Below, in pieces: positions 1,689 to 25,888 of a stretch of DNA of 26,765 nucleotides. The notes below the pieces were generated by a model. That model was not told the DNA's origin, did not search any database, and worked only from the letters and a program-made list of their open reading frames with translations. The position numbers were made by a program, and so were the translations under genes. Positions within the stretch are counted from its first letter, which is position 1, and each line of letters starts with the position of its first letter. The stretch comes from a virus. The stretch lies in IMG/VR virus record IMGVR_UViG_3300028591_000065; one strand, written 5' to 3'.

Positions 1689-1751
1689 CTTTCCCACAAT
1701 TCCCATTATGTATATGTTAATATGTTATTGTAGTGAATAATACACTACACG

Positions 1752-1776
1752 AAAGCACCTTAAATGGTGTTTTTTG
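1752..1776 (+). terminator. Candidate intrinsic terminator at the end of the early arm
   Basis: Stem AAAGCACC (1752-1759) pairs with GGTGTTTT (1766-1773) with one G-U pair, loop TTAAAT, and runs into a T-run to 1775. Confidence 0.5.
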
Positions 1777-1797
1777 TTTCACTTCAATTTGTAGTAG

Positions 1798-1962
1798 GGT
1801 TGGTTTAATAACCAACCTAGAGTAGATTACTGACATATATATATCTTTTTCCTAGACACACGAACCTTTATTAATTCAGTAGTAATCTATTCTAGGGTGT
1901 TTATTAGCAAAGCAAAAATGTAAGGAGGTATATCTCTCCAACTTACTTAACTTTATTGCTGA
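1798..1962 (+). promoter_or_regulatory. Series of three stem-loops in the ORF-free early/late spacer
   Basis: SL1: GGTTGGTT (1798-1805) / AACCAACC (1810-1817), loop TAAT. SL2: CTAGAGTAGATTACTG (1817-1832) / TAGTAATCTATTCTAG (1880-1895), 16 bp with 2 G-U pairs and a 47-nt loop. SL3: TTAGCAA (1904-1910) / TTGCTGA (1956-1962) encloses GTAAGGAG...CTCC-AAC-TTAC (1920-1946). Confidence 0.55.
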
Positions 1963-1993
1963 TAAGACCTAAAAATGGGTGCAAAAAGGGAAA

Positions 1994-2053
1994 ACGGTTG
2001 CAACATAATTGATTTGAAATAAAAAGAACGTTTGAGGGTTTACGGAGTTGCAA
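1994..2053 (+). promoter_or_regulatory. Direct repeat ACGG(AG)TTGCAA x2 upstream of the first late gene
   Basis: ACGGTTGCAA at 1994-2003 and ACGGAGTTGCAA at 2042-2053. A related GGGTGCAAAAA lies at 1977-1987. Confidence 0.35.
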
Positions 2054-2073
2054 ATAGGAAGGAGTGAAACAAA

Positions 2074-2433
2074 TTGAGAAAAGTAGTTAAAATTAGTGAT
2101 AAAGAATATTCTATGAAATCAAGTGCTTATACTCAATTTAAGTACAAAAATGATACTGGAAGGGGTTTACTTACTGATTTAAAAGAAATAGAAAAGTTTG
2201 GAAACCTAGACCAAGAAGAACAACTTAATAAAACTGAAGATTTATTAGAACTAATATTAAGACTTGCTTATATCATGATAGAAGAAGCTGACGAAAAACA
2301 AGTTAAATCTTATGAAGACTTTTTAAAAGACATTGACGGCATGTTAGATAATACTGACTGGATCACTGAAGTAGTTAGTTTAGCTTCAACACCCTTTTCA
2401 AGGGGAATACAAAAAGTCCCAGAACAAAAGTAG
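2074..2433 (+). CDS. Tail assembly chaperone-like protein (gpG-like)
   Basis: 119-aa ORF. TTG start lies 7 nt after GGAAGGAGTG. The pattern VKISDKEYSMKSSAYTQFKY..TG, then an acidic helical middle, then SYEDFLKDIDGM..DW resembles Gram-positive siphophage TAC proteins (recognised by eye only). Confidence 0.5.
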   Translation: MRKVVKISDKEYSMKSSAYTQFKYKNDTGRGLLTDLKEIEKFGNLDQEEQLNKTEDLLELILRLAYIMIEEADEKQVKSYEDFLKDIDGMLDNTDWITEVVSLASTPFSRGIQKVPEQK

Positions 2434-2614
2434 TGATAGACCAGCAGACGAGTTTGAAATATACGGAGTTGCTTTAAGGTTAGGTTTAACAATAGAAGAC
2501 TTAAAGAATATGAGTTTTGTTAGTTTATACAACACCATAATAAGTTGTACTAGTGAAGAAACGGAACACAAAGCAAGTCAAAAAGAGATAAACAAATATT
2601 TAAAAGGAGTGTAA
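2384..2614 (+). CDS. gpT-like extension, open only in the +1 frame relative to 2074..2433 (putative frameshift product G-T)
   Basis: The frame is open 2384-2614 with no SD-preceded start. It encodes ...DEFEIYGVALRLGLTIEDLKNMSFVSLYNTIISC..., reminiscent of the T part of tail chaperones. It overlaps the gpG-like ORF by 50 nt. Confidence 0.4.
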   Translation, partial: LQHPFQGEYKKSQNKSSDRPADEFEIYGVALRLGLTIEDLKNMSFVSLYNTIISCTSEETEHKASQKEINKYLKGV

Positions 2615-2617
2615 GTT

Positions 2618-2806
2618 ATGGAGTTAATGGTAATTAAAAACTTTTCAAATGCTAAAGGTTCTTTTAACTTTGGAGATATTATTAAATGTACTCCAGAAGA
2701 AGCAAAGTTATTAAAAGAACAAAGGTTAGTAAAAGAATACACTAAAGTAGAAAATGAAAAGTTAGAAGTTAAAAAAGAAACTGCAGTAAAGAAGAAAAAG
2801 AAATGA
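2618..2806 (+). CDS. Small hypothetical protein with a lysine-rich tail
   Basis: 62-aa ORF. ATG is preceded by AAAAGGAGTG. ATGA overlap with the HNH gene. Confidence 0.6.
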   Translation: MELMVIKNFSNAKGSFNFGDIIKCTPEEAKLLKEQRLVKEYTKVENEKLEVKKETAVKKKKK

Positions 2807-3153
2807 ATAGATATTCAGTATACAAGTCTAAAGCGTGGGAGAATATAAGAGTATCTTATGCTAGAAGTAAAAACTGCTTATGTGAAAAGTGTGGTAGACC
2901 AATATATATGACTGGAGTAAGTGAGTACATACCAAAAGAAAAAAGATTAAAAGGTATAGTACACCATAAAATACATTTAGACGAAAGCAATTACAAAGAT
3001 GATAGTATTGCTTATGACTGGAACAACCTAGAATTATTATGTATTCAATGTCATAATGAAGAACACTTTACCAAAGGTAGTGTTAGAGATGAATATTTAT
3101 TTGATGATGAAGGAAATATAAAACCCAAGCATACCCTCCCTAGTCGGCATTAA
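2803..3153 (+). CDS. HNH endonuclease (terminase-associated)
   Basis: Motifs: CEKCGR...HHKIHL...NLELLCIQCHNEEH. Located immediately upstream of terS/terL, as in HK97-like cos phages. Confidence 0.85.
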   Translation: MNRYSVYKSKAWENIRVSYARSKNCLCEKCGRPIYMTGVSEYIPKEKRLKGIVHHKIHLDESNYKDDSIAYDWNNLELLCIQCHNEEHFTKGSVRDEYLFDDEGNIKPKHTLPSRH

Positions 3154-3247
3154 ATCAAGTGCTTTGGGGCAACGGTGTAGGGGAGTTCAAAAAAACACAC
3201 AATTTGAATACATACGAGGGGTTTTGCAAAGATATGGAGTGAAATAA
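3130..3247. other. Candidate cos / terminase recognition region
   Basis: A locally G/C-rich tract in an AT-rich genome: ACCCTCCCTAGTCGGC...GGGGCAACGGTGTAGGGGAG...GAGGGG. It lies between the HNH gene and terS. Confidence 0.35.
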
Positions 3248-3565
3248 ATGAAGATAAAACAAATTGACGAAATATTGAAAAAGATACCAGAAGATAAGAA
3301 GAACGAAGCTAGTTTAGTTGCTTCAAAACTTATGTATATGGAAGAAAAATTAAAGGAATTGCAAAAGTCTATAGACGAGCAAGGTGTTGTAGAACATTTT
3401 ATCAATGGTAAACAAGACTTTTTAAGAGAAAGTCCAGCACTAGCAAGTTATACAAAATTGATGAAAACTTATGACACATTTTATAAGAACTTAATTAACC
3501 TAGTACCAAAAGACATTGAAGTAGTCGAAATTGACGAAGATATGGACGATATATTAAATGACTAA
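3248..3565 (+). CDS. terS: Terminase small subunit (P27-like)
   Basis: 105 aa, located between HNH and terL. The segment GKQDFLRESPALASYTKLMKTY is typical of the P27 family. RBS TGGAGTG. Confidence 0.7.
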   Translation: MKIKQIDEILKKIPEDKKNEASLVASKLMYMEEKLKELQKSIDEQGVVEHFINGKQDFLRESPALASYTKLMKTYDTFYKNLINLVPKDIEVVEIDEDMDDILND

Positions 3566-5237
3566 TTGGATCATTGAGTATCATAACTGGTTATGTGAAA
3601 ACCCTATGAGGGTAAATAAGAAAATAAAAGCAGTCTATGATAGGTTGGTTAAGAATATAGAGACACCAGAAACAATAACATTTTTTAATAAACTGACTGG
3701 AGAAACTGAAACGCATACATACGTATATGATGAAGAAAAAGCAAATAGACCTATAAAGTTTTGTGAATTGTTAAAGCAGTCAAAGGGTGTATGGAGTGGT
3801 AAACCATTAAAGTTGGAACTTTTCCAGAAAGCTTTTATAAGTGCATTGTTTGGTTTTGTAGATAAAGAAACTGGTTTAAGAAAATATCGAAAAGCAGTTT
3901 TTTTTGTTGCAAGAAAAAATGGTAAATCGGTACTTGCTTCTGCAATAGCATTGTATATGTTAGTTGCTGATAAAGAAGGAGGTGCTGAAGTATACGCAGT
4001 TTCTACCAAAAAAGAACAAAGTAAAATTGTTTGGGAAGAAAGCAAACGTATGATAAAAAAGACTAAAGCATTAGATAAACGAATAAGGTGTCTAGTAGGA
4101 GGTATCTACTATGATGAAAAAGATAGTTTGTTTAGAGCTTTAGCAAGTGATAGTAATTCCCTAGACGGACTTAATAGTCATTTAGTAATTGCTGATGAAG
4201 TACACGCTTGGAAAGATAAAAACTTACTAGACGTTATGTACGATAGTATGTCAGCAAGAAGACAACCAATGCTAATTGAAACGTCCACAATGGGAACTAT
4301 AAGACAAAACGTGTTCGATATAGAATACGATTATGCTAGTCAAGTAATTGACGGAGTAGTTGAAGATGAAACATTATTACCAATAATCTATGAGTTAGAT
4401 AATGAAAACGAGTGGATCAATGAGGAGTGCTGGTATAAAGCAAACCCAAGTTTAGGAACTATTAAGTCTATAAAGAGTTTAAGGGAAAAAGTAGAACGAG
4501 CAAAAGCAAACCCTATTGAGTTAGTTAATCTTTTATGTAAAGACTTTAATATAAGACAAAATAGTATCAATGCTTGGCTGACATTTGACGAGTTAAATAA
4601 TGAAGAAATGTATAACGAGTGGAAAGACTGCTACTGCATAGGTGGAGTAGACTTGTCGAGTACAACCGATTTAACTTGTAGTACGATACTAGGAGTTAAA
4701 AATGGGAAAATACGAGTTAAGCAAATGTATTTTATACCAACTAATGCACTAGAAAAGAAAGTAATAGAAGATAAGATACCTTATGACAAATGGTTAAAGG
4801 TGGGTTATTTAAGACTTTCTGGAGATACTAAAATTGATTATCACGACGTAGTTAAATGGTTTTTAGAACAAGTGCAAGAGTTTGATTTAAGACCATTATG
4901 GGTTGGTTATGATAGTTGGAACGCACAATATTTTTGTGATGAAATGGTTAGTAATGGTTTTGATATGGTAGAAGTAAGACAAGGTTTTAAAACGGAGTCA
5001 GCACCATTAAAACAAATGAAAGCTGACTTAATAGATAAGAAGATAAACTATAATAATAACCCTATCTTAAAATGGAACTTATCTAACGTAGTAGTAAAAG
5101 TAGATGATAACGAAAATATAATGTTATCTAAAGAAAAAGCAAGACAAAGAATAGACGGAGTTGCAAGTCTAATGGACGCTTACGTTATTTATGTAAATAA
5201 GCAACAAGAATACTTAAATTATATTGGGGAGGAATAA
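3558..5237 (+). CDS. terL: Terminase large subunit
   Basis: 559 aa. Walker A-like ARKNGKS, Walker B-like LVIADEVHAW, and a C-terminal nuclease-like region. Position is canonical. Confidence 0.9.
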   Translation: MTNWIIEYHNWLCENPMRVNKKIKAVYDRLVKNIETPETITFFNKLTGETETHTYVYDEEKANRPIKFCELLKQSKGVWSGKPLKLELFQKAFISALFGFVDKETGLRKYRKAVFFVARKNGKSVLASAIALYMLVADKEGGAEVYAVSTKKEQSKIVWEESKRMIKKTKALDKRIRCLVGGIYYDEKDSLFRALASDSNSLDGLNSHLVIADEVHAWKDKNLLDVMYDSMSARRQPMLIETSTMGTIRQNVFDIEYDYASQVIDGVVEDETLLPIIYELDNENEWINEECWYKANPSLGTIKSIKSLREKVERAKANPIELVNLLCKDFNIRQNSINAWLTFDELNNEEMYNEWKDCYCIGGVDLSSTTDLTCSTILGVKNGKIRVKQMYFIPTNALEKKVIEDKIPYDKWLKVGYLRLSGDTKIDYHDVVKWFLEQVQEFDLRPLWVGYDSWNAQYFCDEMVSNGFDMVEVRQGFKTESAPLKQMKADLIDKKINYNNNPILKWNLSNVVVKVDDNENIMLSKEKARQRIDGVASLMDAYVIYVNKQQEYLNYIGEE

Positions 5238-7174: not shown

Positions 7175-8311
7175 ATGAGTAGACTTGAAGAAATTGAAGC
7201 AAGAAAACTTGAAATAAGAGAAGAACTTGAAGCAACTGAAGAAGTTGAAAAAGTTGAAGAACTTAATCAAGAAGTAGACGCTTTAAATGAAGAAGTACAA
7301 CAAATTGAAGAACATGAAGAAGAACAACAAATTGCTGAAAAAATAGAAGAAGCACCAGTTGTTCCAGAAGTTATCAAGGAGGAGAAGAAAAATATGGATA
7401 ACAAAGAATTAAGAAACACAAAAGAATACGTAGACGCATACGCTGAATACGTAAAAACTGGTAGTGATAAAGAATTAAGAGCTTTATATACTACAAACGC
7501 AACTGAAGTATCAGGCTCAGTTGAAGTACCACAAGTAGTTGAAGACATTGTAAGAACTGCTTGGCAAAGAGAAGACTTAATGCAATATGTTAGAACATTA
7601 AGTGTTAAAGGAAACTTAAAAGTTCAATTTGAAGTTTCATCAAGTGAAGCACAAGTACATTTAGAAGGTGCTGACGAACCAGTTAGTGAAGAAGAACTAG
7701 TATTAGGTATCGTAGAACTAAAACCAGTATCAATTAAAAAATGGATCGGTATTAGTGATGAAGTAGTAGATATGAGAGGAGAAGAATTCTTACGTTATAT
7801 CTATGACGAATTAACTTATAGAATTGCAAAAAAATGTGCTGATACATTAGTAGGTGCTATTGCTGGTTTACCACAAACTGCAACTGCTTCTAGTCCTTCA
7901 GCAAATAAACTTACTTTAGCACCAGCAGTAGGAACTATTGCAAATGCTATAGCTAATTTAAGTGATGAAGCAAATAACCCAGTAATTATTATGAATAAAT
8001 TAACTTATGGAAAATTTAAAGAAGTTGCTTATGCAAATGGTTATTCAGTAGATCCATTTGAAGGTTTAAGAGTTATCTTCAATAACACATTACCAGCATA
8101 CGATAGTGCTTCTTCTGGAAACGTTTATGCTATCGTTGGAGATTTAGGTTTTGGTGCAGTTGCAAACTTCCCAAACGGAGAAGGTGTTGAAATCAAATAT
8201 GATGAAACAACTTTAATGACTGACGATATTGTACGTATTTTAGGACGTAGATTTGTTGGTATGGGTGTTGTAGCTGATAAAGCATTTACTTTAATAGCAA
8301 AACCACAATAA
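7175..8311 (+). CDS. Major capsid protein (HK97 fold) with an N-terminal acidic coiled-coil delta/scaffold domain
   Basis: 378 aa with the strong RBS AAGAAGGAGG. The E-rich N-terminal ~70 aa are followed by a capsid-like body. Position after the protease is canonical. Confidence 0.85.
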   Translation: MSRLEEIEARKLEIREELEATEEVEKVEELNQEVDALNEEVQQIEEHEEEQQIAEKIEEAPVVPEVIKEEKKNMDNKELRNTKEYVDAYAEYVKTGSDKELRALYTTNATEVSGSVEVPQVVEDIVRTAWQREDLMQYVRTLSVKGNLKVQFEVSSSEAQVHLEGADEPVSEEELVLGIVELKPVSIKKWIGISDEVVDMRGEEFLRYIYDELTYRIAKKCADTLVGAIAGLPQTATASSPSANKLTLAPAVGTIANAIANLSDEANNPVIIMNKLTYGKFKEVAYANGYSVDPFEGLRVIFNNTLPAYDSASSGNVYAIVGDLGFGAVANFPNGEGVEIKYDETTLMTDDIVRILGRRFVGMGVVADKAFTLIAKPQ

Positions 8312-8332
8312 AAATAGAAATGAGGTAAGACT

Positions 8333-8599
8333 ATGCTACAAGAAATAAAGAAAATACAAGGTATAAATCACAACGAGTTCGATAGTATGATTAATACTTG
8401 GATCGAGAGTGCAAAATTAGACCTTCAAAGTATCGGCATAGTCGATACAAAAGTAAATACACCAGATAGTTTAGTTCAAACGGCAATAATAACTTATGTT
8501 TTGTCTTTTTTAGACATAACTAATGCTGAATTATATGCACAAAGTTATGCACTACAAAAGGACGTTTTAAGACACTATACGGAGTACAATGGAATATAG
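8333..8599 (+). CDS. Head-tail connector protein (gp6-like)
   Basis: 88 aa, first gene after the capsid gene. Assignment rests on size and synteny. Confidence 0.6.
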   Translation: MLQEIKKIQGINHNEFDSMINTWIESAKLDLQSIGIVDTKVNTPDSLVQTAIITYVLSFLDITNAELYAQSYALQKDVLRHYTEYNGI

Positions 8600-8900
8600 T
8601 GAGATTATTTATTTAATAAGTGAGACTGAAGGAGTAGATGAAATAGGTAATATTATCACTACTTCTTCAAGTCAAAAAAAATGTTATGCTAAAGTTCAAA
8701 GTGTACGAACTAATGAATTCTATAATGCAGTCGAGGTTGGTTTAACACCGAGTATTGAGTTTGTAATTAAAAAACTTAATTATTCTGGAGAAGATTTAAT
8801 CGAGTGGAACGGAAATAAGTATCAAGTTATAAGAATAGTAGAACCAAAGAACAAGTTTGATATTGTATTGGTATGCTCTAAAAAAATAGGAGTTAACTAA
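8589..8900 (+). CDS. Head closure / head-tail adaptor protein
   Basis: 103 aa. The pattern ...CYAKVQSVRTNEFY...GNKYQVIRI is typical of the adaptor family. Confidence 0.6.
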   Translation: MEYSEIIYLISETEGVDEIGNIITTSSSQKKCYAKVQSVRTNEFYNAVEVGLTPSIEFVIKKLNYSGEDLIEWNGNKYQVIRIVEPKNKFDIVLVCSKKIGVN

Positions 8901-9268
8901 TGGGTTCAATATTAGACGTTAGTAAAATGCTAGACAATTATTCAACTGCGATTCAAGACGAAATAGAACGTGTAATATTCGAGAATTGTGATAAAGCAAA
9001 AACTGATTTACAAAACGAAAGAAGCACGTATCAAGTTAGAACTGGTAAATATAATAAAGGGTGGAAAGTTAAAAAAACCAAAAATAGAAAATATGTTGAA
9101 GGAGTTGTATATAATACGCAATACCAATTAACACATTTACTAGAAAAAGGGCATGTCACTAGAAATGGTGGTAAAACTAGAGCTTTCCCACATATAGAAC
9201 CAGTAAACGATAGAACACAAAAATTAGTTGTTGAAGAAATTGAGAGAGCAATAGGAGGTATACAATGA
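8900..9268 (+). CDS. HK97 gp10-like tail-component protein
   Basis: 122 aa. The motif LLEKGHVTRNGGKTRAFPHI resembles the gp10 family. ATGA-type coupling with neighbours. Confidence 0.6.
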   Translation: MGSILDVSKMLDNYSTAIQDEIERVIFENCDKAKTDLQNERSTYQVRTGKYNKGWKVKKTKNRKYVEGVVYNTQYQLTHLLEKGHVTRNGGKTRAFPHIEPVNDRTQKLVVEEIERAIGGIQ

Positions 9269-9579
9269 CTTATAAACAAGTATTTGATATGTTAAGCACA
9301 TTAAAAATACCAGTTGCTTACGACCATTTCCCAACGAATAAACAAGTACAACCACCTTTTGTTGTATATAGAGCAAGTAGTCCAGAAACATTTAAAGCTG
9401 ACGGAATAACATACTATAGACCTTATGAGTATGAAATAGAACTTATAACGGAAACAAAAGATATATTGCTAGAACAAACTATTGAAGATTTACTAACTAC
9501 AAATAAGATACCATACGACTTGATAGATGAAGTATGGGACGAAGACGAACGTATCTATCACAACTTTTACGAAATATAG
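9265..9579 (+). CDS. Tail completion / tail terminator-like protein
   Basis: 104 aa, last gene before the major tail protein. Assigned by synteny only. Confidence 0.5.
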   Translation: MTYKQVFDMLSTLKIPVAYDHFPTNKQVQPPFVVYRASSPETFKADGITYYRPYEYEIELITETKDILLEQTIEDLLTTNKIPYDLIDEVWDEDERIYHNFYEI

Positions 9580-9589
9580 GAGGTATATA

Positions 9590-10156
9590 ATGAGTAAAGT
9601 TAAGTTTGGTTTAAAAAACGTACATATTGCTAAAATTACTTATGGAGAAAGTGGTGGACTACCAACTATTACTTATGGAACTCCATTTGCTTTACCTGGT
9701 GCAGTTAACTTAACACTAGACCCAGAAGGAGATAGTGCTGACTTCTTTGCTGATAACACTAAATATTTTAGTTCAAGTGCTAATAATGGTTATAGTGGAT
9801 CATTAGAAATGGCAAAACTTACTGAGGAGTTTAGAACTGAAATACTAGGAGAAACTACTGACACTAACGGTGCATTAGTAGAAAGCAAAGACGATACTCT
9901 AAGTGATTTTGCTTTAGGTTTTGAAGTTGACGGAGATGATAAGAATACAAGATATTGGTTCTATGCTATTACTCCTGCAAGAGCAGGCGCAGGTTCATCT
10001 ACTATTGAAACAACAAAAGAACCTATTACTGAAACAATAAATATTAGTGCTAATGCAAGAATAACTGACGGAAAAGTTAGAATATTTATGGAAGAAACAA
10101 ATACAAACACAACAGCTTTCAATGGTTTCTTCACAAGTGTATACGAAGCACAATAA
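9590..10156 (+). CDS. Major tail protein (phi13-family-like)
   Basis: ATG 9590 follows TAGGAGGTATATA. The sequence MSKVKFGLKNVHIAKIT...TYGTPFALPGAVNLTLDPEGDSADFFADN matches the pattern of this family. The track's 9527 start overlaps the upstream gene and lacks an SD. Confidence 0.8.
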   Translation: MSKVKFGLKNVHIAKITYGESGGLPTITYGTPFALPGAVNLTLDPEGDSADFFADNTKYFSSSANNGYSGSLEMAKLTEEFRTEILGETTDTNGALVESKDDTLSDFALGFEVDGDDKNTRYWFYAITPARAGAGSSTIETTKEPITETINISANARITDGKVRIFMEETNTNTTAFNGFFTSVYEAQ

Positions 10157-10158
10157 AA

Positions 10159-10214
10159 TACTACTCTCTTATGAGTAGTACAAAGAGAACTACTATATCG
10201 GTAGTTCTTTTTTT
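10159..10214 (+). terminator. Tandem hairpins; the second is an intrinsic terminator after the major tail gene
   Basis: Hairpin 1: TACTACTC (10159-10166) / GAGTAGTA (10173-10180). Hairpin 2: AGAACTAC (10186-10193) / GTAGTTCT (10201-10208), followed by T-run 10208-10214. Confidence 0.75.
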
Positions 10215-10238
10215 AGTATTCATAAAAGGAGGTTTTTT

Positions 10239-12458
10239 ATGGCAAGTTCAAGAATAAAGGGCATTACCATTGATATTGGAGGTAATACCCAAAAACTACA
10301 AGACGCATTGAAGGGAGTAGACAAGCAAATATATGGTTTAAATGCTGATTTAAAAGACTTAAATAAAGCATTGAAACTAGATCCAAACAATACGGAATTG
10401 TTAGCACAAAAGCAAGACGTATTAGCAAGGAATATAAAAGCTTCTACTGATAGACTAAATGCTTTAAAAGAAGCACAAAAGCAACTAGGTAGTTATAATT
10501 CATTAACTGAAGAACAAAAAGCTCAATATAATGCTTTAAGTGGAGAAATAGCAAAGACTGAAAAAGCATTAAAAGACATGAATAACGAACTTAAAGGGAC
10601 TGCAAAGATAGATTTAAGTGCGTTAAAGACTGGTTTAGCAAAAGTAGGAGATATTGCACTAGACGTTGGTAAAAAGTTAGCACAAGTCACAACTGCAATT
10701 AGTGGGGCATTGACTGGAGTAGTAAGTCTAGGAGTAAAGAGTTATGCAAGTTTAGAGCAAAACTTAGGTGGTATTGAAACTTTATTTGGAGATAGTGCTG
10801 ATAAAGTAGTAGAGAACGCCCGTAAAGCTTTTAAGACTGCTGGAGTAAGTGCTAATGAATATATGCAAGGTGTCACTTCATTTAGTGCTAGTTTATTACA
10901 AAGTTTAGGTGGTAATACTGATAAAGCAGCCGATATAGCCGATATGGCATTTAGAGATATGTCAGATAATGCTAATAAGTTTGGTACTGATATGTCATCA
11001 ATACAAAGTGCTTATCAAGGTTTTGCAAAACAAAACTATACACTCCTAGACAACCTTAAGCTCGGTTATGGGGGAACTAAAACCGAAATGGAAAGACTAC
11101 TTAAAGACGCTTCTAAAATAAGTGGAGTTAAGTACGATATTAAAAACCTAAGTGACGTATACGAAGCAATACATGTTATACAAGGAGAATTAAAAGTCAC
11201 TGGTACAACTGCAAAAGAAAGTGCAAGTACAATTAGTGGTTCAGTACAAACAATGAAGTCAGCTTTTGACAACTTTATTAATGGTTCTGGTGGTGCTGAA
11301 GATTTAATTGAAAGTGTTAATAATGTTTTAACAAATGTATCTAATGCAGTAATAAAAATAGCACCTAGTATTTTAAGTGGTATACCTAAATTAATATCTA
11401 GTTTATTACCACAAATAGGACAAATGATAGTAAATCTTGCACCTCAATTATTCCAGTCAGTTAGTCAAATGATAACGCAAATATTAGACATGGTAAAAGG
11501 AGACACAACTGGTTTACAAAATACAATAAGTTCATTAGTAGAAAGTATCGTGACTTTCTTTACTGAAAACTTACCAAAGATAATTGAAATAGCATTGACT
11601 ATATTAGTCACACTAACTGAAAGCATTGCTAATAATTTAGACACAATAGTACCAGCAATAGTAGACTGCGTTATAACAATAGTAAATACTTTAATTGATA
11701 ATTTAGATATGATAATAGACGCTGGTATCAAGTTAATAATTGCACTTGCTGAAAGTATAACTGATCCAAAGACATTAAAGAAATTAATAGACGCAGTACC
11801 AAAGATAATTACAACTATAGTCACAACTTTAGTAAAGAACTTTCCAAAGATAGTTTCTGCTGGAGTTCAAATTATAGGAAGTTTGGCAACTGGTTTATAT
11901 AATGCTTTTAGTATGATAAGAGATAAAGCATTTGAATTATTGAATAACTTTAAAGACTGGTTATTAGAAGGTTTATGGAAAATAAAAGACGTTGGTAAAG
12001 AATTAATAAGTGGTTTATGGAGTGGTTTAACTGAAAAGTGGGACAGCTTAAAGAATAGTGTTAAGAACTTTGGAGAAGGAGTAGTAAATAAGTTTAAAAA
12101 TGTATTTGGCATAGCTTCTCCAAGTAAAGTATTTAAAAAGGTTATAGGTACTAATTTAGCATTAGGAATAAGTGAAGGTTTTACTGAAGAAATGAATAAA
12201 GTTTCAACTGATATGACTAAGTCAATACCAGTAGACGATTTAATAGGAGAATATGATACTGCAATGCGTAGTTTAACCAGAGGAATTAATTCAAGTGTTA
12301 ACCCAACAATAAACCCAAGTATCACATACGAGCAAAATTACTCAATGATGAGTAAAGCAATGAAAGAAGCTTTAAACGATATGGTAGTAGACTTAGACGA
12401 TAGAGAAGTAGGAAGATTCGTTAGTAAAACAATAACTAACGAAGTATATGGGAGGTAG
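10239..12458 (+). CDS. Tail tape measure protein
   Basis: 739 aa. The N-terminus IKGITIDIGGNTQKLQDALKGVDKQI is typical of Firmicutes tape measure proteins. The protein is long, helical and hydrophobic. Position is canonical. Confidence 0.85.
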   Translation: MASSRIKGITIDIGGNTQKLQDALKGVDKQIYGLNADLKDLNKALKLDPNNTELLAQKQDVLARNIKASTDRLNALKEAQKQLGSYNSLTEEQKAQYNALSGEIAKTEKALKDMNNELKGTAKIDLSALKTGLAKVGDIALDVGKKLAQVTTAISGALTGVVSLGVKSYASLEQNLGGIETLFGDSADKVVENARKAFKTAGVSANEYMQGVTSFSASLLQSLGGNTDKAADIADMAFRDMSDNANKFGTDMSSIQSAYQGFAKQNYTLLDNLKLGYGGTKTEMERLLKDASKISGVKYDIKNLSDVYEAIHVIQGELKVTGTTAKESASTISGSVQTMKSAFDNFINGSGGAEDLIESVNNVLTNVSNAVIKIAPSILSGIPKLISSLLPQIGQMIVNLAPQLFQSVSQMITQILDMVKGDTTGLQNTISSLVESIVTFFTENLPKIIEIALTILVTLTESIANNLDTIVPAIVDCVITIVNTLIDNLDMIIDAGIKLIIALAESITDPKTLKKLIDAVPKIITTIVTTLVKNFPKIVSAGVQIIGSLATGLYNAFSMIRDKAFELLNNFKDWLLEGLWKIKDVGKELISGLWSGLTEKWDSLKNSVKNFGEGVVNKFKNVFGIASPSKVFKKVIGTNLALGISEGFTEEMNKVSTDMTKSIPVDDLIGEYDTAMRSLTRGINSSVNPTINPSITYEQNYSMMSKAMKEALNDMVVDLDDREVGRFVSKTITNEVYGR

Positions 12459-12461
12459 TTT

Positions 12462-15038
12462 ATGAGAAATTATGTAATAATAAATGGAGTTAATTCATTA
12501 AGTATAAAAGGTTTAGCAATAAGTAAACTACCTTCTATTTCTAAACCACCATTAAGAGTAATGACGGAAGAAATAGACGGACGAGACGGAGATATAATAA
12601 CTGAATTAGGTTATGGATCGTATGATAAAGAATTAGTCATTGGTTTATATGAAAATTATGATATAAACGAAATAATAGGTTTCTTTAATCAAGAAGGAAC
12701 TATTGTATTCAGTAATGAAGATGATAAATACTATAACTTTAAAATAATAAATCAAATAGACTATGAAGCATTAATCAAGTTTAGAACTGCAAATGTGACA
12801 TTACATTGTCAACCGTTTAAGTACCCTTTAGAAGAAGAACCTATCGAACTAATAGATACATATATAGAAGAAGAAGGGGAAGAAATAACTTTAACCCCAA
12901 CAGAAGACGCACCAATGGAGATAACATTAAAAGGAAACACTTCACAAGTAGTAATACCAGCAGAAGAAGGTTTAGAAGCTGAAGGAACAAGCATAACATT
13001 AACTGACGTAATACCAACAAAAGAGAACTATATAATACTAAAAGGAAATACATCACAAAACGGAACACCTACACCAGATAATCCAGTAAATGTTAATGTA
13101 GTAAGTGGAGATAATGAGATAGTTGTATGTGGTAAAAACTTAATTCCATTTCCTTATCAAGGTTCAACAAGAACTGATGGTTCTTTATCGTGGGTTGTAA
13201 ATGATGATGGCACTATATTAGTAAATGGCACAAACGATACAGGTTCTACTAAATATTTTAATTTACAATATAATAACGGAATTCAATTAAAAGCAGGAAC
13301 TTATACAATTTCCGTTGGTAGTACATCAAATATTAGGGCAACGGTGGCTAAATGGGGTGATAACACTAATGTAATTGCATTGTTATCACCAAATACAAGC
13401 GATACAACATTTACTCTTACTGAAGATATGATTGTCACTATTGTACTAGCAATAAATAATGGGTTAAGTGTTAATAATATTTTAGTAAAACCAATGCTAG
13501 AAAAAAATACAAGTTCAACAACATACGAACCATATACAAGAAATACATATCATATAAATTTAGGCACAATAGAACTATGTAAAATAGGAACATACCAAGA
13601 TAAACTTATTAAGTCTAATGATAAATGGTATTGGTATAGAGAAATTGGGAAAGTTGTTTTAAATGGTAGTGAGAATTGGGGCAATTTTCATATTGAAAGT
13701 TCAGGACTTGGTAGAGCAATAGTAGAAAGTACTAATGTTTATTTTGACAGCGATACACCAAGCATTTTAGCAAGTAATATGAAAGGTGTTAAATATTCAA
13801 GTTCTTGGAATAATACTTATGATTGTATAGCAAGTTATAATAATAATAGATTTATAGCATATTTAAAAAATGCAACTGATTTAACAAGTTTTAAAGCAAT
13901 TTTAAGTAATAGTAATTCAATAGTAAAATATGTACTATCAACACCTACTTATACTGAAATAACTGATACTAATTTAATAAATCAATTAAATGCTTTATAT
14001 AATGCTACTATTTATGAAACAACTAATATAAGTTCTATTCCTAACGATTTAGAACCTTTTATTGATATTAAGTACAATGTTGTCACACCTTCTCCTAGTC
14101 CTCAAAGACCGAGTGCTATTAATGTGGTTAGTGGTACTAATACTATTAAAATAGCTAATGAAGATGATACTGAAAGTCAAACTTTTAATATTAGACTTGG
14201 ATCATTGAAGTTATACAAACTAAATGACACACAAGATTATATTTATAAAAGTGCTGATAAATGGTATATAAGAAACCACGCAAAAGAAAAAACCTTTACT
14301 GGTGCTGATATTGAAGGTTGGGGTTGTTTACAAAATGGTAGAGGAGAGTGGTGTATTCTAACTACTAATATTAGAAATGAAGTAAAACAAGGTTCATCTT
14401 TAATTGCTGATATATTACCATTTTTTAGTAGTGCTATATTTGACGGACTATATAATCAAAATGCTATAACTTTAGGTGGTAAAAATATAGAGTTGATGAT
14501 AGAAGGAATAAACGATAATGATGATGAATTATTTACGGACTTCTTAGCAATACATAACTTAACTATTTTATATGAGTTAGCAACTCCTATTGATACCGAA
14601 ATAACTGACACTGATTTAATAGAAGATTTGGAAGCATTACTTGAAGCAACTTCATATAACCCAGAAACAAATATCACACAAACAAGTAATGATAAACCAT
14701 TTATTATATATGCTAAAGCATTAGAAGGTGGTTCTGGAGAAGCTGAAGTAATAAACGAAGGTAATATATACGCTAAACCTATCTTTGAAATAGAAGGTAA
14801 TGGAATAGTACAAGTTTTAATTGATAATAACGAAGTATTACAAGTTGATACTACAAACGATACAATAATAATTGATACTGAAAATATGGAAGCAATTAAT
14901 AAGAGTGATAATACATTAGCAAATAGACAAGTAATAGGAGATTATTCAAAAATAAAATTAGTTTCTGGAGAAAGTAATGTAAAACTTACTGGTAATTATA
15001 CAAAAGGAACTATTACAAAATATACGAGGTATCTATGA
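12462..15038 (+). CDS. Distal tail protein (evolved Dit) with two inserted, related modules
   Basis: 858 aa directly after the tape measure gene. Dit-like N-terminal (~120 aa) and C-terminal (~110 aa) parts flank two paralogous insertions (see findings). Confidence 0.7.
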   Translation: MRNYVIINGVNSLSIKGLAISKLPSISKPPLRVMTEEIDGRDGDIITELGYGSYDKELVIGLYENYDINEIIGFFNQEGTIVFSNEDDKYYNFKIINQIDYEALIKFRTANVTLHCQPFKYPLEEEPIELIDTYIEEEGEEITLTPTEDAPMEITLKGNTSQVVIPAEEGLEAEGTSITLTDVIPTKENYIILKGNTSQNGTPTPDNPVNVNVVSGDNEIVVCGKNLIPFPYQGSTRTDGSLSWVVNDDGTILVNGTNDTGSTKYFNLQYNNGIQLKAGTYTISVGSTSNIRATVAKWGDNTNVIALLSPNTSDTTFTLTEDMIVTIVLAINNGLSVNNILVKPMLEKNTSSTTYEPYTRNTYHINLGTIELCKIGTYQDKLIKSNDKWYWYREIGKVVLNGSENWGNFHIESSGLGRAIVESTNVYFDSDTPSILASNMKGVKYSSSWNNTYDCIASYNNNRFIAYLKNATDLTSFKAILSNSNSIVKYVLSTPTYTEITDTNLINQLNALYNATIYETTNISSIPNDLEPFIDIKYNVVTPSPSPQRPSAINVVSGTNTIKIANEDDTESQTFNIRLGSLKLYKLNDTQDYIYKSADKWYIRNHAKEKTFTGADIEGWGCLQNGRGEWCILTTNIRNEVKQGSSLIADILPFFSSAIFDGLYNQNAITLGGKNIELMIEGINDNDDELFTDFLAIHNLTILYELATPIDTEITDTDLIEDLEALLEATSYNPETNITQTSNDKPFIIYAKALEGGSGEAEVINEGNIYAKPIFEIEGNGIVQVLIDNNEVLQVDTTNDTIIIDTENMEAINKSDNTLANRQVIGDYSKIKLVSGESNVKLTGNYTKGTITKYTRYL

Positions 15039-19772: not shown

Positions 19773-20108
19773 TTATAAATCTTTAGTGCAATTATACGTT
19801 TGATACTTTTTATAGACTAAATCGTCTTTATTCCAGTTGGGGTATTTTTCTTTAAAATAATCTTCAGCACGTTGTATCATATACTTACGCATTGGTGTAT
19901 CATCAAACATAAAATGACAGTCTAAACAATTAGTCATTATATTCTCTGGAATACCTAAACCACCATGAGAACGTTTTATAAAATGTGAATTAGCTAAGTT
20001 AATATCACAATATCTACCACAAAAAATACACCTGTGGTTATCTCTTTCCCATACTATTTGCTTAGTTTCTTTTGAAATCATTAAAGCTTTAGTTCTTTCA
20101 CTTTTCAT
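19773..20108 (-). CDS. HNH endonuclease (second copy; only minus-strand gene)
   Basis: 111 aa. Motifs: VWERDNHRCIFCGR...NSHFIKRSHGGLGIPENIMTNCLDCH. RBS AGAGGGA on the minus strand. Confidence 0.75.
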   Translation of the reverse strand: MKSERTKALMISKETKQIVWERDNHRCIFCGRYCDINLANSHFIKRSHGGLGIPENIMTNCLDCHFMFDDTPMRKYMIQRAEDYFKEKYPNWNKDDLVYKKYQTYNCTKDL

Positions 20109-24377: not shown

Positions 24378-24824
24378 ATGCAAGAACTAATTAATAGACT
24401 ATTTCAATTAAATACATACCAATTAAGCAAAGTAAATGAGTTTATAGATAATCTACTAAACCCTAAAAAACATAGAAGTTTATCACAAAATGCTTATATG
24501 TGGCAATTAATAAACGAGATAGGGGTAAAGGTAAGAAAGAGCAAAGAAGAAGTATACTTGCAGATGTTAAAAGATTATGGGGTAAGTGAAATAGTGAGTA
24601 TGCTTTCTTCTATTTCTCCTAAAGGGTTCTTTAAATATTATGAAGCAATAGGAACAGGAATAGTAAACAATAAAGAGTTTACTCATTATAAGATTTATAA
24701 AGGTAGTAGTGAATATGACACAAAAGAAATGAGTGTACTAATAGACGGCGTAATACAAGAAGCTGAAAATCTAGGTATACCTACTTTAACAAAAGAAGAA
24801 ATAGAAAAAATGAGGTTAATATGA
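24378..24824 (+). CDS. NinB/Orf-like recombination mediator candidate
   Basis: HRSLSQNAYMWQLINEIG ... YKGSSEYDTKEMSVLIDGVIQEAENLGIP parallels lambda NinB (RSLDQN..LW ... STS.M...EF.ELLE.IQAFG) by eye. Confidence 0.45.
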   Translation: MQELINRLFQLNTYQLSKVNEFIDNLLNPKKHRSLSQNAYMWQLINEIGVKVRKSKEEVYLQMLKDYGVSEIVSMLSSISPKGFFKYYEAIGTGIVNNKEFTHYKIYKGSSEYDTKEMSVLIDGVIQEAENLGIPTLTKEEIEKMRLI

Positions 24825-25354
24825 TAGAAACATGGAAACAAATTGATAACACTTTATATTATGTTTCTAATTTTGGAAGATTTAAAAAGAAAAACCCTAA
24901 AAATGGTTATAGGTTTATAAAACCATTTAAAGAGCATAACAAGTATGTTATTAAGGTTAATGGTAAATGTATGACCTGCTCTCGTTTAGTTGCTAATGCT
25001 TTTATAAAACCTCTTACAAAGAGTGATTGTGTATATCATAAAAATAAAATGGAGTGGGACAACTATTATAGGAACTTGCAAGTATTATCTAAACAAGAGT
25101 TAGGGAAAAGAACAGGACATGTATCACGATCCAAGTCTGTAGTACAAGTTGAAAATGGAGAAATAGTCAAAATGTTTAGGAGTACAAGAGAAGCAGGAAG
25201 AAAGTTATACATAAGTTATCAAACAGTACTAGATTATTGCAAAGGTAAAGTTAAAAACCCTATGTATAATCTAATGTTTGAAGATGATTATTTCGATAGA
25301 GTTTTACCTGCATTTAGTTGGGAACATAAAAAAGGAACGCCAAAGAAAAATTAA
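24821..25354 (+). CDS. Free-standing homing-endonuclease-like protein (NUMOD4 N-terminus, degenerate HNH_3 core, C-terminal NUMOD1/IENR1-like HTH)
   Basis: NUMOD4 pattern: TWKQIDNTLYYVSNFGRFKKK. HNH_3-like core: VYHKNKMEWDNYYRNLQVLSKQE. HTH pattern: FRSTREAGRKLYISYQTVLDYCKGK. Confidence 0.6.
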   Translation: MIETWKQIDNTLYYVSNFGRFKKKNPKNGYRFIKPFKEHNKYVIKVNGKCMTCSRLVANAFIKPLTKSDCVYHKNKMEWDNYYRNLQVLSKQELGKRTGHVSRSKSVVQVENGEIVKMFRSTREAGRKLYISYQTVLDYCKGKVKNPMYNLMFEDDYFDRVLPAFSWEHKKGTPKKN

Positions 25355-25370
25355 TAAAGGAGTGATAACA

Positions 25371-25502
25371 ATGGCATTTTTAGGTGGTGCATTTTGTGGT
25401 TTAATTCTAGGTGGTGGTTTTGGTTTATTACTAGGTTGTTGTTTAGCAAGTGCTAGTAAAGAAGACAAATATTTAGAAGAAAACTGGAGACATAAAAGAT
25501 GA
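25371..25502 (+). CDS. Small glycine-rich membrane peptide (43 aa)
   Basis: ATG 25371 lies 8 nt after AAAGGAG. Translation: MAFLGGAFCGLILGGGFGLLLGCCLASASKEDKYLEENWRHKR. The track's 25278 start overlaps the upstream gene. Confidence 0.55.
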   Translation: MAFLGGAFCGLILGGGFGLLLGCCLASASKEDKYLEENWRHKR

Positions 25503-25888
25503 GCGAAAAAGAACTATCAAGATATTATAAAATTAGGCAAGAAATAGACGATTTAGAAAATAGAATAAAAGAGTTTGGAGACGGAGTAAGTGGTATTGCT
25601 ATAAAAGATATTATTACAATGTCTTCTGGAAAACACGAAAGTTTACAAGAGAAGCTAGTGTTATTAAAAGATAAATGGGTAGAAAAAAGAATATCAGCAC
25701 TAGAAGAATATTTAAAAATAGAGAATTACATAGACAATGTAGATGATCCAGAGACAAGAACAATAATGCGTTTACGTTTCCTAGACCTTTTAACTTGGGA
25801 AGAAATAGGGGAAGTAGTACATATGGAACGTACTAGTGTATCAAAGAAGATAAGAAAGTATATAAAGGTGCAAAATGCAAAACAATAA
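25499..25888 (+). CDS. Putative late-gene transcriptional activator (sigma-70 region-4-like HTH; RinA/ArpU-type role)
   Basis: 129 aa. N-terminal coiled segment: YYKIRQEIDDLENRIKEF. C-terminal segment RTIMRLRFLDLLTWEEIGEVVHMERTSVSKKIRKYI resembles sigma region 4. The gene lies near the end of the early arm. Confidence 0.55.
   Translation: MSEKELSRYYKIRQEIDDLENRIKEFGDGVSGIAIKDIITMSSGKHESLQEKLVLLKDKWVEKRISALEEYLKIENYIDNVDDPETRTIMRLRFLDLLTWEEIGEVVHMERTSVSKKIRKYIKVQNAKQ

Follow-up and report, generated by a model that had tools for sequence, protein, structure and literature searches.

A tail assembly chaperone gene pair at the head of the late gene block of an uncultured gut phage, probably expressed by +1 slippage on a rare proline codon

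We analysed by purely computational means a stretch of 26,765 nt of viral DNA (IMG/VR virus record IMGVR_UViG_3300028591_000065), referred to as the window throughout, which has a G+C content of 29.8%, looks like the DNA of a small siphophage and comes from an uncultured gut phage. The locus under study consists of G, a gene that opens with a TTG start, and of T, a frame that overlaps the 3′ end of G and lies +1 relative to it; the pair is followed by the genes of an HNH endonuclease and of both terminase subunits, and the genes of the major tail protein and the tape measure protein lie further downstream (Table 1). The ORF of the major tail protein was listed from position 9527, and the start given in Table 1 was deduced from the match to PHROG 88, which begins at residue 22. 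Elsewhere in the window, two further genes resemble HNH endonucleases (19773-20108 on the minus strand, and 24821-25354), and the first of these is the only sizeable minus-strand gene, which thus codes for an HNH protein and not for a repressor. No integrase was found among the ORFs scanned, which were a subset of those in the window, an ARAGORN scan of the window returned no tRNA, and the 858-aa protein encoded at 12462-15038, in the position of a distal tail protein after the tape measure protein, had no PHROG match at E ≤ 0.001.

Table 1 Features of the window discussed in the text, with the basis on which each was assigned
Feature	Position (nt)	Strand	Basis or remark
Terminator-like hairpin after the upstream gene block	1751-1774	+	Consensus scan: 1 site, 0.4 expected
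Shine-Dalgarno-like AGGAAGGAG	2056-2064	+	9 nt 5′ of the G TTG start; read from sequence
G, tail assembly chaperone, 119 aa (identity supported by homology and fold)	2074-2433	+	Standard decoding, stop TAG 2431-2433
Proposed +1 slip site CCC_T	2392-2395	+	CCC (2392-2394) would re-pair to CCT (2393-2395)
T part, +1 frame, 72 codons	2396-2614	+	Stop TAA 2612-2614; open in all readable relatives; homologous to −1 T peptides
Possible 3′ stimulatory hairpin	2402-2420	+	GGGGA 2402-2406 with UCCC 2417-2420; RNAfold
HNH endonuclease gene	2803-3153	+	Pfam HNH, E 1.5e-7; PHROG HNH match
Small terminase gene	3248-3565	+	PHROG terminase small subunit match
Large terminase gene	3558-5237	+	After small terminase; order conserved in relatives
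Major tail protein gene	9590-10156	+	PHROG 88 'major tail protein', E 1.6e-45
Major tail/tape measure gap, usual place of G/GT	10157-10238	.	82 nt, no ORF
Tape measure protein gene, 739 aa	10239-12458	+	Homology to tape measure proteins of Javan340 and NatCom_9291
129-aa protein	25499-25888		PHROG 36 'transcriptional regulator', E 3e-18

We determined the identity of G by profile, sequence and fold comparison. G matches PHROG 709 (E 3e-13), a family that carries the label 'unknown function' and that is also matched by proteins encoded between the major tail and tape measure genes of Javan340 (E 5e-45), NatCom_9291 (E 1e-39) and the related contigs L164 and L135. A tblastn search of phage records yielded five weak homologues with identities of 26-30% and E values of 4e-5 to 7e-3, namely the Streptococcus phages Javan340, Javan331, Javan306 and Javan372 and the record NatCom_9291; in the two records inspected, Javan340 and NatCom_9291, the homologue is encoded between the annotated major tail and tape measure genes. 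Alignment of the profile of the G family with the Javan340 protein by hhalign gave a probability of 95.8%. The AlphaFold2 model of G (pLDDT 82.5) consists of a beta hairpin followed by helices, and a BFVD fold search with this model returned matches that are mostly annotated as tail assembly chaperones (probability ~1.0, TM-score 0.45-0.66, with weak E values of 2e-3 to 1e-2); the top PDB fold match, the tape-measure chaperone ORF12 of phage p2, is non-significant at E 1.7. Sequence-profile searches of Pfam, NCBIfam and PDB with G, T and the fusion revealed nothing significant (best PDB E 0.09), and blastn of positions 1700-3600 gave no match in phage records. The identity of G as a tail chaperone, which the earlier note had proposed, is hence supported by family membership, by fold and by the position of the homologues. 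The profile comparison that the note had suggested as a check came out in two parts: Pfam has no credible match to offer, and PHROG 709 and hhalign do link G to proteins of the canonical locus.

The window is one member of a larger family. A large protein collection contains 382 homologues of G, many of them on contigs of 26-32 kb, and scans of viral contigs, genomes and metagenomes yielded more than 120 loci in which G is 38-86% identical. The matches from the genome collection are metagenome-assembled genomes labelled Bacilli, Bacillales, Firmicutes or Eubacteriaceae, and three such records name sheep, roe deer or rabbit ('Lapin') samples. The comparison used to locate the frame switch covered 75 distinct sequences.

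The +1 frame of the window is open from 2384 to 2614, that is, for 76 codons plus the TAA stop, an event for which we estimate a probability of ~0.002 in random sequence of the same base composition. Its only canonical start in frame is an ATG inside '...NMSF...', and none lies ahead of the conserved T core. The −1 frame closes at TAA 2475-2477, which corrects the closure at 2470-2472 that the earlier note had given. The same picture emerges from the relatives: past the G stop, the +1 frame stays open for 55-68 codons in every readable related locus (one contig ends before that), and the −1 frame is closed within 4-17 codons. In Javan340 and NatCom_9291, it is the −1 frame that stays open beyond the G stop, and the classic −1 heptamers A_AAA_AAG and A_AAA_AAA are found near the end of G. 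Their T peptides nonetheless align with the +1 peptide of the window family (BLASTP E 8e-10 and 3e-6), and the peptides read in +1 and in −1 have ...LG(I/L)SI(D/E)(D/E)(L/M)K... and a C-terminal ATQxDxDxF in common. Both G and T are therefore homologous to the canonical pair, and only the relation between the frames differs. Fusion of the two frames is predicted to yield a GT protein of 179 aa (2074-2394 joined to 2396-2611) with the junction ...SLASTP/FQGEYK...; the predicted junction peptide is DIDGMLDNTDWITEVVSLASTPFQGEYK, and the matching peptide of unshifted G is DIDGMLDNTDWITEVVSLASTPFSR. Judged by its sequence and conservation, the pair at 2074-2614 is a real G/GT tail chaperone pair, and the claims of the earlier note that the downstream frame is T-like and lies +1 of G agree with what we found. 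The comparison with relatives that the note had suggested as a check shows both overlapping frames to be conserved and, save in L135, the slip codon as well.

Translation of T as a separate small protein, by reinitiation or from a non-canonical start and hence without any frameshift, is an alternative reading of the open frame. It could draw on the ATG, GTG or TTG codons that occur between the CCC codon discussed below and the T core in 15 of the 75 sequences, on the ATG at NMSF in the window, and on a precedent, since T4-like phages are reported to produce their chaperone proteins with no frameshift (Vladimirov et al. 2022, cited in PMC12859696). Against this stand the distribution of starts and the onset of conservation: no start codon is conserved in position among the 75 distinct sequences, 44 of them have none at all before the T core, and conservation in the +1 frame begins inside G, directly after the CCC and 15-45 nt before the G stop. 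Moreover, the homologous T peptides of the Javan340 type are also devoid of starts and are found behind classic slippery heptamers. We regard separate translation of T as very unlikely.

Comparison of the relatives narrows down the point at which the frame changes. In four of them (L005, L032, L033 and L035), the last stop of the +1 frame ends 2 nt before a CCC codon, and in L019 the 0-frame stop of G begins 15 nt after the first C of this codon; the shift therefore takes place within 17 nt. In many relatives, the G stop lies 15-18 nt after the first C. In the window, the codon stands within ACA CCC TTT, in frame at 2389-2397, and is codon 107 of G. CCC is present at this site in 74 of the 75 distinct sequences, L135 being the sole exception, the base that follows is always A or T in the CCC-bearing relatives, and 61 sequences that were tabulated base by base read CCC-W-T-W-T-C without exception. 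CCC is a rare codon in this genome: 38 ORFs of the window contain 177 proline codons, and only 2 of these are CCC.

The periodicity of sequence variation changes at the same site. Upstream of CCC, positional entropy is highest at the third positions of the 0 frame (1.29 bits, versus 0.96 and 0.67 bits at the other positions), and from position +7, counted from the first base of CCC, it is highest at the third positions of the +1 frame, which are first positions of the 0 frame (1.50 versus 0.94 and 0.84 bits). Changes of AGG to GGG and of GGA to CGA in relatives alter the residue in the 0 frame and are silent only in the +1 frame, where they leave Q and G in place; the shift therefore lies before those codons. 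The codon in front of CCC encodes small residues (mainly S, T and A) in the 0 frame and, if read in the +1 frame, an unrelated mix, e.g., H, L and R. Were the shift one codon upstream, the need to encode two frames at once could explain in part why CCC does not vary. The re-pairing of CCC with CCW is the only one available in all CCC-bearing members; about half of the sequences have ATA or TTA as the next codon, and neither of these re-pairs in +1.

A +1 or −2 shift elsewhere in the overlap, i.e., on the TTT_T that follows CCC, on AGG_G or GGG_G, or on A-rich sites near the G stop, has to be weighed against this. In the window, tRNA-Phe could slip perfectly from TTT to TTT within CCC TTT T; CCC_T and TTT_T are both slippery and lead to an identical product, so the window alone cannot tell them apart. 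AGG GGA or GGG GGA is common in the family, and in L135, where the site reads ACC TTT CGT, the step from TTT to TTC is the only good re-pairing. For the family as a whole, however, the ATA or TTA codons after CCC leave about half of the sequences without a slip at that position, variation is already framed in +1 from position +7, with the changes at AGG and GGA being silent there alone, and the third base of CCC, a 0-frame wobble position, never varies, contrary to what a shift further downstream would lead one to expect. A-rich sites would come to lie downstream of the G stops found at 15 nt (L019) or 18 nt (many relatives). Shifting at any of these other sites therefore appears unlikely to us. 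The earlier note had listed ACA CCC TTT next to two such A-rich candidates: the 17-nt bounds, the presence of CCC in 74 of 75 sequences and the wobble periodicity single out the first, and both CAA AAA GTC and the stop-adjacent −2 site CAA AAG TAG drop out, being neither conserved nor located ahead of the G stop of many relatives. Two further routes were considered and rejected: (i) transcriptional slippage, as the site has no conserved homopolymer run, and (ii) a −2 slip, as no codon two bases back would re-pair with the tRNAs concerned. On the comparative sequence evidence, the frame switch is most likely a +1 slip on the rare CCC codon.

The one sequence that lacks CCC, L135 (IMGVR_UViG_3300033553_000153), has a G protein 42% identical to that of the window and a T frame that is likewise +1. 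Its pair lies at the canonical place, with the major tail gene at 7376-7945, G at 8001-8372 and the tape measure gene at 8566-10812. At the homologous site (8340-8351), ACC TTT CGT is found in place of CCC, and the junction peptide ...PF.GEY... is retained, which implies that L135 would use a different slip codon, TTT to TTC, to make the same junction peptide. The slip codon is therefore not universal among +1 relatives, and, with +1 occurring in the canonical position, the direction of the shift and the location of the pair are not strictly linked. A search for close relatives of L135 recovered just L135 itself.

We further examined the surroundings of the slip site for elements that could stimulate the shift. 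The hairpin predicted in the window comprises only 4 bp, is thus weak, and begins 10 nt downstream of the first base of CCC. A hairpin of the GGGG(A)...(U)CCCC type is present in 39 of the 75 distinct sequences, compared to 1.5 ± 1.2 (maximum 7) in shuffled sequences, and its 5′ arm begins 8-13 nt after the first C of CCC in these 39. The arms co-vary, as seen in the pairs GGGGAA/UUCCCC, GGGGAU/AUCCCC, GGGGAGUU/AACUUCCC and GGCAACU/AGUUGCC, and the proline codon contained in the 3′ arm is CCC in 27 of 40 cases compared to 1 of 62 proline codons elsewhere in T. Where the hairpin occurs, the RNA itself is therefore likely to be under selection. The hairpin is missing from the other 36 sequences, and it is absent from most members that have no G-E or G-D after P-(F/Y)-Q, e.g., the QGNYK group. 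RNAalifold applied to an ungapped 48-nt alignment did not recover it and returned just a trivial CCC:GGG pairing, because variable loop lengths shift the 3′ arm out of register; the case for the hairpin therefore rests on folding of individual sequences and on the shuffle test. An Rfam scan of the window found no family. Taken together, the hairpin is probably an enhancer and not a requirement. The codons that occupy the A site after CCC (ATT, ATA, TTT and TTA) rank with those used most often in the genome, and no stop codon adjoins the slip site; neither of the usual +1 triggers, a slow codon or a stop codon, is therefore present.

The position of the pair departs from that of its homologues. 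The gap that separates the major tail gene from the tape measure gene contains no plus-strand ORF of at least 50 aa in the ORF lists, and the pair is therefore truly missing from its usual place. It is encoded ~7.5 kb further upstream, ahead of the HNH and terminase genes. This arrangement is a property of the family, in which the order is the gene of an ArpU-like regulator (where detected), G, T, HNH, small terminase and large terminase: G-T precedes the HNH and terminase genes in every locus in which neighbours were captured, and the major tail gene directly neighbours the tape measure gene ~7.5 kb downstream wherever both were captured, L135 being the exception on both counts. The pair is thus moved to the head of the late gene block, away from the major tail and tape measure genes, in line with the displacement that the earlier note had read from the window alone. 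In several related loci (L010, L015, L019, L028, L030, L031, L035 and others), 1.2-2.2 kb of extra DNA is found between T and HNH.

With such a location, the pair might not, or no longer, be a tail chaperone at all; it could fulfil another role, with tails being assembled without G/GT or with the help of an unrecognised gene. That it adjoins packaging genes instead of tail genes, that PHROG 709 has no function label and that its similarity to characterised chaperones is weak would all fit. Several observations speak for a retained function instead. Both G and T are under purifying selection, and their domain layout is that of the relatives encoded between major tail and tape measure genes. The tail module of the window is homologous to that of Javan340 and NatCom_9291, with identities of 40-46% for the major tail protein and, in comparison with the tape measure proteins annotated there, of 38-39% for the N-terminal region of the tape measure protein; in family members that include both the major tail and the tape measure gene, the space between the two offers no other candidate. 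Loss or change of the chaperone function is accordingly, in our estimate, highly improbable.

The stretch in front of G carries features of its own. The terminator-like hairpin and a non-coding stretch of ~300 nt suggest that a new transcription unit begins with G; matches to sigma-70-type promoters upstream of G were below the expectation from shuffled sequences. Within the non-coding stretch, a 26-nt inverted repeat (1806-1831 and 1881-1906, 88% complementary, 49 nt apart) could represent a late-promoter or regulatory element. The 129-aa protein encoded near the other end of the window is possibly a late activator of the ArpU/RinA type, and homologues of it are encoded upstream of G in most related loci. 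On the other side of the pair, at least eight related contigs (L010, L015, L019, L020, L028, L033, L034 and L036) terminate 45-51 nt beyond the HNH match, and several others do so within 300 nt of it. These recurrent contig ends suggest a fixed physical genome end, i.e., a cohesive end, in the interval between the HNH and small terminase genes (3154-3247 in the window). If this holds, G-T and HNH would lie at the far right of the virion DNA and the terminase genes at its left.

From these data, the best explanation of the locus, which we consider probable, is a relocated G/T pair of the lambda type that is expressed by +1 slippage on a rare CCC codon. According to this proposal, most ribosomes would terminate at the G stop and release the 119-aa chaperone. 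We infer that a minority would shift by +1 while peptidyl-tRNA-Pro sits on CCC (2392-2394) and re-pairs with CCT (2393-2395), would then read the +1 frame from TTT at 2396 to TAA at 2612-2614 and would thereby produce the 179-aa GT protein. Two contributions to the slip seem likely, (i) weak decoding of a codon that is almost unused in the genome and (ii) the G-C hairpin that about half of the family would place at the mRNA entry channel of the ribosome. By analogy with lambda, the G part may bind the tape measure protein, and the T part may recruit the major tail protein.

Beyond the locus itself, the chaperone may function independently of adjacency to the tape measure gene, the CCC slip may have replaced an ancestral −1 heptamer and the ratio of GT to G may depend on the host, a combined reading that we offer as speculative and rather unlikely. 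If it were true, the G/GT gene of the family would be the first late gene, next to a probable cohesive end, and the GT:G ratio could follow the supply of host tRNA-Pro, its modification state or the activity of EF-P, which would render tail assembly sensitive to host physiology. The working rule for annotating tail chaperones combines a place between the major tail and tape measure genes with the presence of a −1 heptamer; the family breaks both parts of this rule and retains the protein pair, and phages reported to be without a chaperone may have one elsewhere. A function can now be assigned to PHROG 709. Homologous G/T pairs are found in three states, −1 in the canonical place, +1 in the canonical place (the single contig L135) and +1 relocated, and this series provides concrete material on how recoding signals are replaced in evolution. 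A +1 slip on CCC ahead of common sense codons, with an optional hairpin, would also make a compact case for studying what drives slippage without a slow A-site codon.

The G/GT shift of phage Mu is −2. Frameshifting in G/GT is widely conserved and normally −1, and the G-T shift of a haloarchaeal myovirus has been described as very likely +1 (PMC5009743). Among the shift sites of actinophage tail chaperones used to train PRFect, 350 of 2718 (~13%) are forward (PMC10885494); a +1 shift is therefore a minority state and not new. The earlier note had called both the dislocation and the direction of the shift unusual, which holds for the former, as we found no documented case in open-access text of a chaperone pair displaced from the tape measure gene, and less so for the latter, forward shifts being a known minority. 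According to a 2026 report, the chaperone gene is typically found directly before the tape measure gene or only a few genes away, and an atypical location is listed there as a possibility for the Gordonia cluster DJ phages, in which no chaperone was found (PMC12859696).

Compared to gpG/gpGT of lambda (Levin et al. 1993; Xu, Hendrix and Duda 2004; reviewed in PMC5009743), the pair of the window shares the small chaperone ORF with an overlapping, start-less frame that is, or in the window is predicted to be, fused to it by a programmed frameshift near the 3′ end of G. It differs in the shift, which in lambda is −1 on a heptamer X_XXY_YYZ and here would be +1 on a single proline codon, and in its place: lambda-type phages have the pair between the major tail and tape measure genes, and in the window it precedes the tape measure gene by ~7.5 kb. 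The closest system in terms of homology is that of Javan340 (with Javan331, Javan306 and Javan372) and NatCom_9291, whose G, T, major tail, tape measure and connector genes are homologous to those of the window; there, the pairs are in the canonical place and shift by −1 on A_AAA_AAG or A_AAA_AAA, whereas the pair of the window is relocated and +1. The slip site of L135, ACC TTT CGT, resembles the +1 motif UCC_UUU_CGU of influenza PA-X, whereas the window family has CCC. The closest system in terms of the slip itself is Listeria phage PSA, in which the capsid gene shifts by +1 at ACA_CCC_UCC, followed by a pseudoknot, and the tail shaft gene by +1 at CCC_UGA (PMC5009743). Both PSA and, as predicted, the window represent a low-GC Firmicute phage that employs a +1 slip of peptidyl-tRNA-Pro on a rare CCC, and the PSA capsid site and the site in the window have the identical ACA_CCC context with a sense codon next. 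In place of the pseudoknot of the PSA capsid gene, a simple hairpin is predicted in part of the window family only, and where the capsid and tail-tube proteins are extended in PSA, it is the chaperone that would be extended here.
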